Shown here: one piece after another, positions 1 through 8,149 of the stretch | Numbering within the stretch: position 1 is the first letter of the stretch | Layout of the letters: the number at the start of each line of letters is the position of its first letter | Origin: Octopus vulgaris | Taxonomy: Eukaryota | Direction: 5' to 3' | Length of the DNA stretch: 64,000 nt | Assembly (NCBI GenBank): GCA_951406725.2 | Contig: OX597817.1 | Coordinates: forward strand, 42,346,001-42,410,000 | Translations under genes and position numbers: made by a program | Notes under the pieces: generated by a model | What the model saw: only the letters and a program-made list of their open reading frames with translations | Told to the model about the DNA's origin: nothing | The model's database searches: none

Positions 1-1133
1 TCCTAGTATGGCTGCAGTCAAATTAGACTGAAACAACTAAAAAAAAATCACAGTAAAATATAAATTAATAGATTGTTTTGTTTTGTTTTGTTTTTTTTGA
101 GGTTTTTTTTTAATTACAACTGTGATTAAAATTTTTGTAATAATTGTTTCTGACATTCATTTCTCGAGCAGTCCTTAATAGGGTCTTGTAGAAGTGATCC
201 TTTTTCTCACTTGTTAATTCTGTCCAGAAATATTACAATGGCATTAACATAATCAATAACTTAAACAATAGGAATCTATTACATAACCCAACCACAACCC
301 ACGCTAGCACGGAAAACGGACCTTAAATGATGATGATGATGATGATAATGTATGTATATATGTGTGTGTGTGTATAATATGTGTGTCTATATATAATGTG
401 TGGATATATATATATATGTATATACATATATATATAATATATGTGTGGACATATATATATATGTATACATATATATATATATATATATAATATGTGTGTA
501 TACATATATATTTATCCACTTCTCATTTATAATACTTAACCACTAAAAATATTTTTTCATCATAAGCTGAAGAATTATTTCCAAGTCAATAAATAATTAT
601 ATATATTTTCTTTCCAGTCAGGTTGATGTATCTCTATATTAGAATTCTTCTACCAATAATTCTTTCTAATTTTGGTACAAGGCCAGCAATTTTGAGAGGA
701 TGGGCGTTAGTCAATTACAATGACTTCTATGATCAAATGATACGTATTATATTGACTCCAAAATGATGAATGGTAAAATCAGCATTGATGGAGTTTGAAC
801 TCAGGATGTAAAGAGCTGAAAGAATTGGTGTTAAATGTTTTGCTTGTGAAGCTAATGATTCTGCCAGCTCACCATCATCGAATTCTTGTGCATATATAAA
901 TATATGAGTGCCTTGGATACAAATTCCTGGACTTTTACACCTACGGATTACTGTTACCATTCTTCCGGAGTATGCCACTGAAATCGTGATTGGAAATCAA
1001 AAAAATTTGTCCGTGACTCTTCCACTTTTTCCTCGTCCTTTTTTACCTTTCTTCTTCTACCTCCATTTTTCCACTTGTGTCGCCACCACTTACACCTACA
1101 CAGACATTCACCACTTCTCAACATGCCTGACTC

Positions 1134-1342
1134 CAAAATGTGACCTCGTGTGTACCGTTGGCGATTTTTTTCCTCTGTCTTCCCTTCTCTGGATCTTTCC
1201 TTCTCCTATGTTTCTGACGAAGAGCTCTGCTCGAAACGTTAAACCCTCCTTCTTTCCTTCTTTCCTGAGCGTCCAATAATACTATATTTGTTCCACGTCC
1301 TCGCGTTGTTGTGTTTTTTTGTGCTTTCTTGTTTGGATTAAC
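1134..1342 (+). mobile_element. ~210-bp hammerhead-bearing repeat unit, copy 1 (Penelope-like pLTR / retrozyme-like); related sequence may extend upstream to ~905
   Basis: Closely similar to units at 1651-1858 and 1916-2130; contains hammerhead motif at 1210-1244; ends ggattaac followed by (TA)n. Confidence 0.7.
1210..1244 (+). ncRNA. Minimal type I hammerhead ribozyme motif (family H1, copy 1)
   Basis: GTTT-CTGACGA-A-GAGC(tct)GCTC-GAAA-CGTT-AAAC: stem I GTTT/AAAC, core CUGANGA plus one extra A, stem II GAGC/GCTC, GAAA, palindromic stem III ACGT, GUU triplet. Confidence 0.7.
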
Positions 1343-1343
1343 A

Positions 1344-1374
<31 letters not shown>

Positions 1375-1650
1375 TATATGTATACATATATGTATGTATA
1401 TATGTATGTATCTGTGTGCCTGTGTATCTCTGTTTGTCCCTACCACCACTACCACCATCACCGCCACTACTGCTTGACAATCGGTGTTGGTGTGTTTGTG
1501 TGGCCATGTGGTAAGAAGATTGCTTCTCAACCACATGGCTCTAGGTTCAGTCCCACTGCAGGGCACCTTGGGCAAGTGTTTTCTACTATAGCCTTAGGCT
1601 GACCAAAGCCTTGTGAGAGTATTTGGTAGACAGAAACTGGGAGAAGCCCA

Positions 1651-1853
1651 GACTGCATGTGTATCGTTGGCTATTTTTTTCCTCCATCTTCCCTTCCTTG
1701 GATCTTTCCTTCTCCTATGTTTCTGACAAAGAGATCCGCTCGAAATGTTAAATCCTCCTTCTTTCCTTCTTTTCCTGAGCGTCCAATAACACTATACTTG
1801 TTGCACGTCCTCACGTTGTTGTGTTTTCTCTTTGTGTTTTCATGTTTGGATTA

Positions 1854-1858
<5 letters not shown>
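1651..1858 (+). mobile_element. Hammerhead-bearing repeat unit, copy 2 (ribozyme core mutated)
   Basis: Aligns to copies 1 and 3; motif at 1719-1753 reads CTGACAA...GAGAtccGCTC GAAATGTT (G8>A, stem II mismatch, palindrome lost). Confidence 0.7.
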
Positions 1859-1908
<50 letters not shown>

Positions 1909-1915
1909 ATATATT

Positions 1916-2125
1916 CAAATTCTGACCGCGTGTGTACCATTGGCGATTTTTTTCCTCCATCTTCCTTTCTTTGGATCTTTCCTTTTCCTATGTTTCTGAT
2001 GAAGAGCTCCGCTCGAAACGTTAAACCCTCCTTCTTTCCTTCTTTCCTGAGCATCCAATAATACTATACTTGTTCCACGTCCTTGCATTGTTGTGTTTTC
2101 TCTTTGTGTTTTCATGTTTGGATTA

Positions 2126-2130
<5 letters not shown>
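1916..2130 (+). mobile_element. Hammerhead-bearing repeat unit, copy 3
   Basis: Aligns to copies 1 and 2; (TA)n on both sides. Confidence 0.7.
1992..2026 (+). ncRNA. Minimal type I hammerhead ribozyme motif (family H1, copy 3, intact)
   Basis: GTTT-CTGATGA-A-GAGC(tcc)GCTC-GAAA-CGTT-AAAC. Confidence 0.72.
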
Positions 2131-2180
<50 letters not shown>

Positions 2181-2221
2181 ATGCATGTGTGTGTGTGTGT
2201 GTATATATGTATATATATGTA

Positions 2222-2276
<55 letters not shown>

Positions 2277-2280
2277 ATAT

Positions 2281-2327
<47 letters not shown>

Positions 2328-2712
2328 TAATATATAATATATATGGTGGGGGGTATTTGTGTGTGAGTGTGTGTCTGTGTTTGTCCCTCCAACATCGCTT
2401 GACACTGTCTCTGTAACTTAGTGGGTCAGCAAAAGAGACTAATAGTATAAGTACCAGGTTTACAAAGAATAAGTCCTGGTGGCCGATTTGTTCAACTAAA
2501 GGTAGTGCTCCAGCATGGCCATAATCAAATTATTGAAACAAGTAAAAAAGCAAAAGAGTAATTATATAAATGAATTTACATCTTACATCTTCGCATATAT
2601 CTGGCTCTCCTCTGCATTGTTCTTTCTCAAACACACACACATGAACATACGTGTGCATGCATGTGTACATGTACATATGCACACATTCATACATTCACCC
2701 AGATACACATAT

Positions 2713-3282
2713 CTCTCTAGCATCTCTTGCTCTCTCTATCTTTCCCCTCTCTCTGTCTCTCTCTCTTTCCCTTCCTCTCACTCCTTCTCCCTCTTTCACC
2801 CTCTCTCTCCCTTTTTCACCCTCTCCTTCATTCTGCCCCTGCTACCTTGTCACCCCTTTCTCCCACTCTTCCAGTTTTCTGCCTCTCACTTTCTCTCTCA
2901 CCCTCTCTCCCCTCTTTCCCTCTCTCTCCTCCATTCTTCTCTGCCCCTCCTCTCCCATCCCTCCATCTTTCTTTCTCTTTCTCTTTCTCATTTCCTCTCT
3001 TCCTCTCTCTTTCCCTCACCTTCATTCTCTCTCCCTCTCCCCTTATCCCTCCTTTCTCCCACCCCTCCATCTTTCTCCCTCTCTCTTTCTTCTCTCTCTC
3101 GTTTCCTCTCTCCCTCTCTCTTTACCTCACCTTCATTCTCTTCCCCTCACCCACTTATCCCTACCCCCTCTCCCACCCCCGCCCTCCTTTCTCCCTCTCT
3201 CTCTTTCCCTCACCTTCATTCTCTCCCCCATCTCCCCCTTATCCCTACCCCTCTCCCACCCTCCCCCTCTCTCCCTCTCTCT
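2713..3282. repeat. CT-rich polypyrimidine low-complexity tract with internal repeated units
   Basis: Almost purely C/T; recurring ctctctctttccctcaccttcattctct motif. Confidence 0.9.
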
Positions 3283-3636
3283 ACATATATGAGAAAGACC
3301 AGTTGATAATGAAGAAAATGATGCTGTTGTTTATGAGACAACTTACAAGTAGCAAGCAAGCATTATGTGCCTTACATTCAGACTGAAGAATGAAGCAACA
3401 TTATTGCACATGTTAGCAGTAAATAAGTAAGCTGGACAAGTCATGGGTGATATCTCCATAAACAGGAAATACTCCACCAGAAATATCTGAGAAAAATCAG
3501 ACACATTCAGTGGTAGAAAAGGTACCAGAATGTCAACATGCTCACCCATACTGACATTTCTCCAGCATTTATTTTTTTTTAAACTGTGATCCCTCAATGC
3601 CATTTTTGATAGGCTGACGATGCTAGTTGCTATCCA

Positions 3637-4038
3637 GGCGGCGAGCTGGCAGAAACGTTAGCACACCGGGTGAAACGCTTAGTGGTATTTCGTCTGCCGC
3701 TACGTTCTGAGTTCAAATTCTGCCGAGGTCGACTTTGCCTTTCATTCTTTCGGGGTCGATAAATTAAGTACCAGTTACGCACTGGGGTCGATGTAATCGA
3801 CTTAATACCTATGTCTGTCCTTGTTTGTCCCCTCTGTGTTTAGCCCCTTGTGGTTAATAAAGAAATAGGTATTTCGTCTGCCGCTACGTTCTGAGTTCAA
3901 ATTCTGCCTTTCTGACTTTGCCTTTCATCCTTTCGGGGTCGATTAAATAAGTACCAGTTATGCACTGGGTTCGAAATAATCGACTAAATCTGTTTATCCT
4001 CTCTGTGTTTAGCCCCTTGTGGGTAGTAAAGAAATAGG
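3637..4038 (+). mobile_element. tRNA-derived SINE family B with tandem duplication of its body
   Basis: A-box-like TGGCAGAAACG, B-box GAGTTCAAATTC; body ~3689-3868 repeated at ~3869-4038; matches copies at 37729 and 49070. Confidence 0.85.
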
Positions 4039-4189
4039 TTTACTCATAGCTGAATGAAGGACAGTGCGAGTAAGACAAAGGAAACAATTCAAGGAGATGA
4101 TAAAAAGAAATTTGATCAGGTGTAGCATTTATGCATACAGGTGGGAAGGATTTGATGAATGGCCAATGCAAGAACAGATATATTACCTA

Positions 4190-4512
4190 TGGCTCAGTGG
4201 TTAGAGCATTGGATTCACAATCATGAGGTAGTGAGTTCAATTCCTAGGCTGGGCTGCGTGTTGTGTTCTTGAGCAAGACACTTTATTTCACGTTGTTCCA
4301 GTTCACTCAGCTGTAGAAATGATTTGCGACATAACTGGTACCAAGTCGTATCGCCCTTTGCCTTTCCCTTGGATAATACTGGTGGCATGGAGAAGGGAGG
4401 CTGGTATGCATGGGTGACTGCCGATCTTCCATAAACCCAGAATTGTGCCTCAGAGGGTAACTTTCTAGGTGCAATCTCATAGGCATTCTTGACCGAAGGG
4501 GGCCTTTACCCT
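4190..4512 (+). mobile_element. tRNA-derived SINE family D (CORE-like body)
   Basis: A box TGGCTCAGTGG, B box GAGTTCAATTCC, CORE-like tgtgttcttgagcaagacactt; second copy at 23390-23660. Confidence 0.8.
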
Positions 4513-5680
4513 TATTAATGGAACTTAACACTTCAATATATCACAGATTGAACATCCAAATGATAAACATGAACAAAGAAAGCAGTATAAAACAACCAGA
4601 AACAGAGTCTCTTCTCTCACAGAACTCAAAATTGCCTGTTTGTGACATGAGTCCCACACTATCCAATATGTAGCCACATATGGCTACAGGTAGCCTATAA
4701 ATAGTCACATGGGGCCACATATAGCCACACTGGCCTGTAAGCCCATTGAAGATAAATCTGGTGAATAATCATCCTTGACCCAGAGAGGTTACCAATGATG
4801 GTCAGTGAGTTATAATGTATAAATAACTGTTTGGAATGTTTCATTTAACTTACATTTTATGGCTGGATGCACTTCTTGCCTTGCCCTCAAGCATTCTGAT
4901 GGAACAGACCAAACAGAGGTTGGCTTTCCAGATACAATCCTTCTCTACCTTGAATCATGGAATTATTTTGGAATGACATTTCTTCTAAACGGGTCATCAT
5001 ACTGTCTTACGCATATGTGCACACACACACACACACGCACACACACACACACACACACAACACATACACACGTACACACACACGTATCTCCCTCTCTCCC
5101 TCTCTCTGTCTCTCTCTTTATATATACCTATACATTATATTATGCATGTGTGTATATGTGTATATATATATATATCATATATATATATATGCATTTATAT
5201 ATATGATATATATATATATATATATATATCATATATATAAATGCATACATCATACACACACACACACACAAACATATATATATATATACCTCATTTGGTT
5301 TTGATTGTTTACTTCCACTGGGCATATGTATTCTAGAATAGAAGATTAATGAAAATCTGAGCAAGGATTAATTTGTACTGATTCAATGATGCAAAAACAG
5401 TCTTTCCAAATTCAAGTGCTTTCAGGCACACCTAAACAACCTAAACAAAAAAGTCAGACATTTTACAAAGAAAAAAATACAATAGGAAATATTTGCTGAC
5501 AAAATTTTTTCAATTTTGTTCTCTACTAATATCAATGCTTCAATGTACGTATATACATGTTTATTATATGTTTATTATATGTTTAAGCAGTTATGTGGGA
5601 ATCAATGTTTAATGTAGATCTGTGGTTTATGTATATGTAGGAACATGTGAAAATGAGAAGCCATTTTGTTTTCCTTCTCT

Positions 5681-5890
<210 letters not shown>

Positions 5891-6718
5891 ATGCATATTT
5901 ATGTTTGTTTATATGAAATACAATGTTTATATATGTTAAAATGTGGTTGAATGTAACTAAGTGTTAGCTTGTATTTTATGCGTATGCATAATGAGCTGTA
6001 TATACAGTGTATACATATATATATTTATATATATATATGCAAGAGTGTAGAATTGTATTGAGTTTTATGTGAATATTGTTAGTGTATGAGTGCATGAAAA
6101 ACTGGTGTGTAAATATCAAATGTTTGGTTGGATATTATATAAACCTATGTATGTGTGCACAGTATGTGGTGGAACTTACTTTTATATTGATTCTGTACGA
6201 ATGACCGGGAGATAGTGACTCTATCAAATGACAGAATCTTTCTTGCCTCCAACTAGAAAAATCCTGTAACTAGATCAGTTCTTCATACATTTTAATTCAC
6301 ATTGTTTTTCAAAGTATTTCGTTAGCTTTTCCTGTTTAATGAAGTAACATATTTCTTTTGATTTGTTCTAACATAATTAAATTGTTTAATAAATGTCTTA
6401 GCTGTCATCACAAGATTAATCCCAGATTATGAAAAAGCGCTTTCAGCACAGAAAAGTGGCTAGCTGTTTGAAAATTAAATTTAAATTTCTAAACTTTCAT
6501 ACCCACTTAATGCATATCAACATGGAAATATAGATAATGAAAGAGAATTAACCCTATTAATTCATTTGATACACTAATCAAATAACAAAATAAACAGATG
6601 AAATAAAATAATTCTCCACATTTGGAAATAATTCTTCCAAATGCTATTATAGTTTCTATGATGTATTAAAATCTATTGACTGAACAAGTCAAATTTTAAC
6701 TCTACCTGTCACTACCTA

Positions 6719-6925
6719 TTAACCTTTGATACCAATCCACCTGAGACCACTGCTACTTCAATGACACAAGCTTCTTGCTTCCAAATGATTAAAGTTAAAA
6801 TATTCTATCAATGTCTCATATTAATTTAAGTTTTGAACATTAGATTAGAAATGACAAAGGTATGATTATTTTCAAATGTAATTGAAAGGTTGCATATTTC
6901 TACAGAAATGTATCAAAAGCATTAA
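6719..6925. mobile_element. Possible old TTAA-flanked MITE
   Basis: TTAA-cctttgatac ... gtatcaaaagca-TTAA imperfect terminal inverted repeats. Confidence 0.35.
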
Positions 6926-8149
6926 ATAATAATCTTCTAATGCTTTTCTTTTCAAAGAGAGGAACCTCCCACTCTGTATCACTAAACCTTTTGCTGCTGT
7001 CCAGGTTACACACTTCAAGTTCTTCCCAAAATATGCACTCATTATGTGCAATCCATTCTCCCATCATTCTCTCACTTGAAAATCACAAACAGAGAATTCC
7101 GTTTATTCTACTTCAAAGTCTCTCTTCTGCATCCTTCCAATCCATCTACTAATACTACCTGAACTTCTTAACGAACAGATGTCATTTAATTATCTTTCGT
7201 ATTACACTGGGGACCTTTAACTCAATCGAAATCATCATTCTTGCAGGTGCCAAATCTGAAATGTTTATCAGCTTAATCCCTTCACGATCATATTTCTTAT
7301 GAAATATACTGCCTGTATATTATATTTGAAATTAATCAGGAATATGGAAGGATTTAATAAAAATAGCAAACATTTTTATTATTAAGCTGGTGTTTGGAAC
7401 ATAACTTCTTACATAAAATTATGATAGAAGGTCTTAATTTATGTAGGAAGACAGTTTTGTATAATTATAACCCAAAGAAATCTCAGGCATTTATTATCAA
7501 GATTGTTGATTAAACTAAACATTTTCATCATTAATCCATATCTGTCTGTAATTCACCTACCGATTCTGCAAATTTTGGCACAGGGCCAATAATTTCAGAG
7601 TAGGGGTAAGTTGATCACATCAGCCCCAGTGCTTGGCTGGTATTTCATTTTATCTGCCCCCAAAAGAATGAAAGGCAAAGTTGACCTTTGCAGAATTTGA
7701 ATTCAACTCTATGAAACTCTTTATTGCTTCTTTGTCCAACTCTTACTCACCACGGGGACAGATACATCATAGTATTTGTCCCCACTCCATAGGATCTATT
7801 TACATTAACTAGATCTGAAAGAAGGGACAGGGGCCATAACATCTGCAGGCACTATGTGACTGATATTGATGCCCTTAACTTTCTGCTTAAATTTGTTTCA
7901 AGTTGATATCTGCAGGAAGGACAAGTGTAGGAGGGGAGGAGGGGGTCTAGATAGTTGCCATTCTGGGGAGGAAGAACTGGACATAATGGTTAATGCAGGA
8001 CAAGAGACGTTGGATTCAAGATGCATGATAAGAAGATCAGTGAATCACAAATATCTGAACAAGGGGGAAAAAGACATGTGTCAATTGTAGCTGGAGCATA
8101 GATTATCAAATTACTACAATTGCAAGACAACTGCAACCAGAAGGTCCAG

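Follow-up and report, generated by a model that had tools for sequence, protein, structure and literature searches.

Minimal, dimer-type hammerhead ribozymes have already been described in Penelope-like elements (PLEs; PMC4209133), and the units reported here, from the window (the whole stretch of 64,000 nucleotides of Octopus vulgaris DNA that was analysed), fit that kind. As in the accessible text of that work, the motifs lie in the pseudo-LTRs (pLTRs), occur mostly as solo motifs from truncated PLEs, and are type I, with a 4-bp helix I, an extra nucleotide inserted after position 9 and before 10.1, a G10.1-C11.1 pair, a palindrome at 15.2/16.2 and no loop 3, such that a dimer is predicted to be necessary; the described PLE motifs cleaved weakly even in that state. 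The initial annotation had drawn this correspondence, down to the extra nucleotide after A9, and it holds against the published pLTR form. Helix II, however, is 4 bp here and 7-8 bp there, the majority core here is CCGA (U4C) whereas the variants reported in that text include U3-A8 with U4C not among them, and the present host group is absent from those it names.

The coding part of the parent element finds counterparts in the endonuclease-bearing (EN+) PLEs Neptune and Nematis, as set out in the accessible portion of PMC8557442, with which it shares a reverse transcriptase (RT) followed by a C-terminal GIY-YIG domain, a CX2-5CxxC linker, a CCHH motif and DKG, as well as pLTRs, partial tandems and a microsatellite bias; unlike them, it has a CA-rich 3' UTR of ~2-3 kb, giving a 6.2-kb unit. 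The same source describes a (TA)n bias for PLEs with a linker of the CX2-5CxxC type, and states the role of the hammerhead in endonuclease-bearing PLEs to be unclear. Active Penelope-like families have already been annotated in an octopus genome (PMC13282606, accessible part).

The reconstituted lizard element PAc, a Poseidon of Anolis (PMC11167929, accessible text), likewise carries a sense-strand hammerhead in its pLTR, uses AT-rich targets and has genomic copies that span the uncut site. It belongs to a different clade, however, its ORF starts inside the ribozyme, whereas the likely start codon here lies ~400 nt downstream of the motif, and its reverse transcription starts inside the ORF. 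The lizard hammerhead is protein-assisted, and its cleavage was dispensable in vitro and unseen in RNA-seq, with no RNA ends reported at the cut; here, by contrast, some genomic copies start just after the predicted cut. Non-LTR retrozymes (PMC7229834 and bioRxiv 10.64898/2026.07.22.740005, in the parts accessible) resemble the present units in being non-coding, in carrying a type I hammerhead within a 150-400-nt range, in their kinship to PLE pLTRs and in their many monomer copies; they differ in that here a one-unit tandem array is absent, the ribozyme is minimal and the units are continuous with a coding PLE. Last, a C at core position 4 is shared with a viroid hammerhead (cited in the accessible text of PMC3088659), for which U4C is reported to lower activity in vitro yet to permit infectivity; unlike in the viroid, the change is the dominant state here, in a young family that is intact and across retroelement copies numbering in the thousands. 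In the literature accessible to the search, no octopus hammerhead motif, no U4C in PLEs and no copies that begin at the cut were described. The role of the hammerhead in endonuclease-bearing PLEs becomes testable with a young family whose ORFs are intact, whose core exists in two natural states and whose 5' ends show a measurable step.

Layout of the locus

As the initial annotation had stated, three units lie on the same (forward) strand, each followed by (TA)n: copy 1 at 1134-1343 (or 1133-1343), copy 2 at ~1652-1857 and copy 3 at ~1913-2129, with pairwise identities by alignment of 89-91% (89% for copy 2 and 91% for copy 3 relative to copy 1). Copy 1 is a pLTR of the younger window subfamily, the C4 clade, with a hammerhead motif at 1210-1244 and a (TA)n-type microsatellite at its 3' end (1344-1411, TRF). 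Copy 2, a pLTR of an older U4 group, carries a decayed motif at 1719-1753 and is followed by a (TA)23 tract (1858-1904, TRF) into which copy 3 is likely to have inserted. Copy 3, of an intermediate U4 group, has its motif at 1992-2026 and ends against (TA)n at 2130-2156 (TRF); a 10-bp duplication (1901-1920) is present at its 5' junction. The spacing from copy 2 to copy 3 is 273 nt, as claimed, and the description of all three as head-to-tail has to be narrowed: only copies 2 and 3 adjoin, via the (TA)23, copies 1 and 2 are 509 bp apart with ~300 bp of intervening sequence, and TRF returned no tandem array with a ~205-bp unit. The interval between copies 1 and 2 includes, at 1496-1652 on the forward strand, an abundant unrelated repeat, which we take to be SINE-like; it matches at 14 more places in the window and at 19 in a set of 30 other loci, and copy 2 starts at the position where the usual TA tail of this repeat would be.

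A genome search with copy 1 gave 859 candidates, of which the best 40 scored were 96-100% identical, and at all 29 other top loci the unit was solo within 1.5 kb, mostly in (TA)n. Among 60 further loci, eight had a second unit within 1.5 kb (five on the same strand, three on the opposite), a degree of local clustering (8/60, and 0/29 in the first set) above the ~1% expected, by our own estimate, from ~10,000 copies in 2.8 Gb. The opposite-strand second units at L134, L158 and L181 lie at 300-900 bp, and resemble known inverted PLE pLTR layouts. On a tree of 67 units (bootstrap correlation 0.90, not converged), copy 1 falls inside the young C4 clade with a support of 99/96, copy 2 joins a set of 11 older U4 copies (92/93), and copy 3 is placed close to a U4 group of intermediate position, its nearest rows being L173 and L175. 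Given that the copies belong to different subfamily groups, three separate insertions are likely; the separate origin of copies 2 and 3, which fall in no starred clade of the tree, appears less firm than that of copy 1. Since every insertion leaves (TA)n on either side, renewed targeting of such tracts would explain the local clustering. Taken by itself, the locus is repeat debris of an ordinary sort.

The parent element and a young sister family

The initial annotation had linked the units to PLEs, and full-length parents with RT and GIY-YIG domains, bearing the unit at their ends, were indeed found: each ~205-bp unit is the pLTR of a PLE with an RT, a CX4CxxC linker and, at the C terminus, a GIY-YIG domain. 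At L093, the order on one strand is pLTR, RT, CSRSRCNTC linker, GIY-YIG, CA-rich UTR and pLTR, the two pLTRs being 92% and 90% identical to copy 1 and the frames broken; this one-strand layout identifies the unit as a pLTR and places the ribozyme on the sense strand. Both ends of L091 are also the unit, in a layout like that of L093 with a deletion. The PLE motifs DKG, KIHK..PGRPIVS and YIDD, followed by LIYCIKC..C..YVG..EH, are present in L093 and in L117, an intact copy (the motif names follow in part the accessible text of PMC8557442), and the linker CSRSRCNTC with CCHH (CNLC..EH..HF) in L093, L092 and L117. A single ORF with RT then GIY-YIG, together with direct pLTRs or a partial tandem, is what characterizes an EN+ PLE, and both features are present here; by the criteria given in that same text the linker would place the element in Neptune or Nematis. 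The Pfam matches to RVT_1 (E 0.022) and GIY-YIG (E 0.0023) were both below cut-off. With the RT as query, 210 database proteins matched at up to 63% identity, and none of the 120 homologues listed carries a clade name.

Immediately upstream of copy 1, positions 905-1132 on the forward strand match the 5' body of the parent PLE, comprising 5' UTR and a likely start codon at 1123-1125, as suggested by L117, whose 1009-aa frame has its first Met there. This piece is 5'-truncated, joined to copy 1, and 93-97% identical to sequence 3' of the upstream pLTR at other loci. The 905-~1133 stretch has 297 candidates in the genome, sits 3' of an upstream unit copy at many loci, and leads into a PLE RT frame at least at L053, L058 and L059, with which L039 and L041 align over 2 kb; an assignment of 905-1133 as a GIY-YIG remnant was rejected in favor of this 5' body. 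Separately, L032-L060 show a partial pLTR, 200-290 bp of 5' body and a pLTR, with many different junctions between body and pLTR. The junction of copy 1 with its 5' body is one among many of this type, which template switching would fit better than a single deleted master.

A search with the endonuclease, in which 150 of 15,220 candidates were scored, recovered a young sister family. In 12 stretches selected for long frames, the frames span 883-1061 aa, the period is 6.2 kb and the copies are 95-99% identical to one another; the protein of this family is 84-89% identical to that of the window-family parent over the main stretches. At L121-L122 (G000:C10:97.80-97.83 Mb), three full-length copies of this family with long open frames are arranged head-to-tail, and such a tandem is a natural substrate for hammerhead dimers formed from pLTR to pLTR. 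The 2-3 kb CA/TA-rich 3' UTR belongs to the PLE (4220-7000 in L117, 1280-3700 in L093), from which it follows that some of the genomic CACA/CATA low-complexity tracts are PLE-derived, L016 being a truncated example.

A Pfam GIY-YIG search of the genome was set aside as a route to the parent, as it returned mainly another PLE family, in which the unit was found at one of 30 loci only, on the opposite strand. This second young family (L067, L072 and L079) has 781-aa frames, a CX4CxxC linker and 27% identity to L117. On the minus strand of L072, at position 250, the string CUGAAGA...GAAA occurs together with a G/C stem of 4 bp, a combination absent from the other loci of the five scanned.

The hammerhead core and its position 4

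The two motifs reported as intact are so, with cores at 1214 and 1996 and the arrangement GUUU-CUGAYGA-A-GAGC/GCUC-GAAA-CG-UU-AAAC; both are minimal type I with U4 and a GUU triplet, and cleavage is predicted after 1240 in copy 1 and after 2022 in copy 3. These copies have the features of a minimal hammerhead (CUGANGA, GAAA, NUH and G10.1-C11.1), which copy 2 does not, its motif being mutated as noted at the outset (G8A and C15.2U, with one pair of stem II broken). The pattern CUGANGA...GAAACGT has two matches in the window against 0.03 expected. An Rfam scan of 1-8000 gave no hammerhead family among 50 matches with E up to 1, all but two of which were miRNA families on simple repeats, and the hammerhead call rests on the core pattern together with the PLE context.

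The initial annotation had made its reading depend on the core being better conserved than the flanks. When the window copies are compared with the sister family, 30 of 32 positions of the motif block are identical, whereas the flanks agree with L117 at 42/92 and 65/111 columns for copy 1 and at 43/94 and 65/106 for copy 3 (~46-61%). The conserved block includes loop 2, and constraint therefore extends beyond the core. Variation within the window family was tabulated from the 75 of 90 copies with a full ungapped motif, the 15 truncated or gapped copies being dropped. Most changes in stem I affect one side only and are compatible with a wobble pair (23 cells), and 5 cells carry a double change; no covariation was seen in stem II. 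The changes are transitions, a class that is frequent in any case. Position 17 was U in 65 copies, A in nine and G in one, and is C in the sister family.

The expectation that a canonical CUGA core is typical was not upheld. Exact 32-nt core patterns across the genome, mostly solo in (TA)n and at least 9,667 in number, comprise 2,811 with CUGA, 6,635 with CCGA (U4C) and 221 with CCAA, such that CUGA is the minority form; descriptors requiring CUGANGA would miss ~70% of the family's motifs (6,635 of 9,446 U4-or-C4 matches). Position 4 was C in 52 and U in 23 of the 75 copies; 12 of these have U4 and an intact motif, and in 29 others C4 is the sole departure from it. In the young family, CCGACGA was present in all 83 readable cores among 100 copies; at L123, a long copy, both pLTRs carry U4. 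In the copy 1 subfamily, U4 was seen by eye in one of 100 copies on the flank-anchored list, and since copy 1 is nested among C4 copies its own U4 is likely a CpG reversion inside the C4 clade. An extension of CpG decay to all U4 copies was rejected, as the reciprocal product CCAA numbers 221 against 2,811 CUGA and U4 marks the older subfamilies; decay stands for copy 1 only.

Solo units and the predicted cut

We consider it probable that the three units are hammerhead-bearing PLE pLTR copies, likely from separate (TA)n insertions and likely inert as a group, which arose in the following manner. Transcription of the element would begin ~110 nt upstream of the cut made by the hammerhead, its GIY-YIG/RT protein would nick a (TA)n target, and reverse transcription would start internally at the end of the first pLTR, at about +100; run-off at the RNA 5' end would then leave a solo ~205-bp unit with the ribozyme uncut, and the (TA)n on both sides would attract further insertions to form a cluster. 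Were the ribozyme to cut beforehand, the same start of reverse transcription would give ~100-bp stubs starting just after the cut, and ~100-bp stubs of this kind are observed. A 3' anchor downstream of the motif gave 7,170 window-family matches, the first 90 of which were used: counted from the cut, 61 of the 90 have their first position between -114 and -89, and the 3' ends sit at a constant place near +100, where (TA)n follows. Copies 1, 2 and 3 of the window start at ~-108, -98 and -110, respectively. In the young family, the homologous site has a small cluster only, with 6 of 100 ends at -153 to -115. Internal initiation has a precedent in the lizard PLE in vitro, on RNA that spans the pLTR-ORF junction and mainly on uncut RNA (accessible text of PMC11167929); there, reverse transcription starts 111-118 nt inside the ORF at a site that shares no homology with the target, whereas the 3' end of the present units falls on a TA-rich stretch that closes the pLTR.

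Ends just after the cut were examined in the young family, in the first 100 of 333 copies, anchored at +38. Twelve alignments start at +6 to +25, or 11 at +6 to +23 when L378, by eye an internal deletion, is left out; before the cut there is one start at -30 to -1 and there are seven at -150 to -1, a figure that includes L374, which is of a different subfamily and not a truncation. With all rows kept, the step at the cut is significant relative to either interval (p=0.0014 and 7e-6, respectively), and the density of ends is 0.6 per nt at +1 to +15 as against 0.01-0.06 upstream. The offset of 5-22 nt is similar in extent to the smear of starts between -114 and -89. A search for TA-flanked stubs gave 35 distinct places, and a script check of 29 of them placed 24 starts at +1 to +17, four at -1, where the junction is ambiguous with (TA)n, and one at -7. 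The young-family step is an indirect hint of in vivo cleavage, and on balance we lean, if only slightly, toward cleavage as the cause of the ends just after the cut; a single short master and the small numbers may weigh on this reading.

The same ends may instead reflect RT stalling at a hairpin that the motif can form, TA microhomology or descent from a single short master, with the motif serving as a protein-binding site or simply decaying, and to this we assign a real chance that falls somewhat below even. An alternative hairpin of -8.8 kcal/mol does have its 3' foot exactly at position 17; against a general effect of this sort, eight other predicted hairpins of the young-family UTR, six of them stronger, show only 0-2 ends apiece over the 25 nt that lie behind, compared with 11 here. 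Junctions ambiguous with (TA)n affect the 8 of 29 stubs at -1 to +3, and the strict comparison of +1 to +7 with -7 to -1 gives 10 against 5 (p=0.15) with a pattern that is itself biased against upstream ends; the young-family ends at +6 to +23, however, lie beyond the TA-like letters and vary in position and flanks. The 90-copy window-family sample has no step at the cut (three ends at -30 to 0, three at +1 to +15). The loss of in vitro activity with U4C (PMC3088659) and the lack of RNA-seq ends at the cut in the lizard PLE (PMC11167929), as given in the accessible texts, likewise favor an explanation other than cleavage. A hammerhead cleaves only where position 17 is not G. The presence there of U, A or C across subfamilies, with the single G among 75 copies, fits this rule and argues for cleavage.

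Returning to cleavage as the cause, we tentatively suggest, as something possible that we would not yet call probable, that an active PLE family may run on an attenuated hammerhead: U4C would have become fixed in the intact young branch, and about a tenth of RNAs would be cut in vivo, probably with the aid of protein, leaving stubs. By the same suggestion, U4C would also have taken over the younger window subfamily, and most RNAs would remain uncut and be copied across the site. If true, the genome would hold a count of how often PLE ribozymes cut during transposition, and the switch between U4 and C4 would be a tuned setting. Four contig sets, which we guess to be RNA, cover the repeat family; contigs show neither ends, strand nor circles.

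It is rather unlikely, in our estimation, that the 205-bp unit is instead a self-standing, non-autonomous, SINE-like element, with one or more short masters copied by the PLE enzyme. A discrete 205-bp master would give the same 5' pile-up, and the sharpness of that boundary (61 of 90 starts within 26 nt), the large excess of solo units (the 7,170 anchor matches) and the diagnostic letters carried by each subfamily speak in its favor. Long elements of the same pLTR subfamilies (L091, L092, L093, L101, L103 and L112) are nevertheless interspersed among the solo copies of the tree, and several upstream pLTRs of longer copies begin at the very same -114 to -89 boundary, as the derivation of solo units from PLE RNA would have it.

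Lastly, it is very improbable that the locus acts as an array akin to non-LTR retrozymes, in which two motifs of a read-through RNA pair, both cut, and a 273-nt (or 782-nt) RNA circularises: two canonical cores do lie on one strand 782 nt apart, the copy 3 core could conceivably cut the copy 2 site, where GUU and a wobble-compatible stem I strand remain, and copies 1 and 3 pair mutually in the predicted fold of 1134-2130, but this pairing is in an inactive register, with a probability of at most 0.0001 for the trans stems I and III, the copy 2 core has G8A, the units come from different subfamilies with no TRF array, and the 273-nt piece (z -5.35) folds mainly via a (UA)n hairpin. [quoted passage not shown] The functional tandem releasing a 273-nt circle, as originally proposed, is therefore disfavored by the subfamilies, by the broken core and by the model, in which the active dimer reaches -5.7 kcal/mol as against -23.7 for the inactive duplex. 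The model omits core and tertiary contacts and is a weak argument for any hammerhead, and it is with this weight that folding would argue against spontaneous dimer cleavage at the locus. Elsewhere in the window, another repeat forms a partial tandem with a period of ~184 bp at 3650-4040 (families D14, D16 and D18), and 4186-4248 gives a weak tRNA match (E 0.43).
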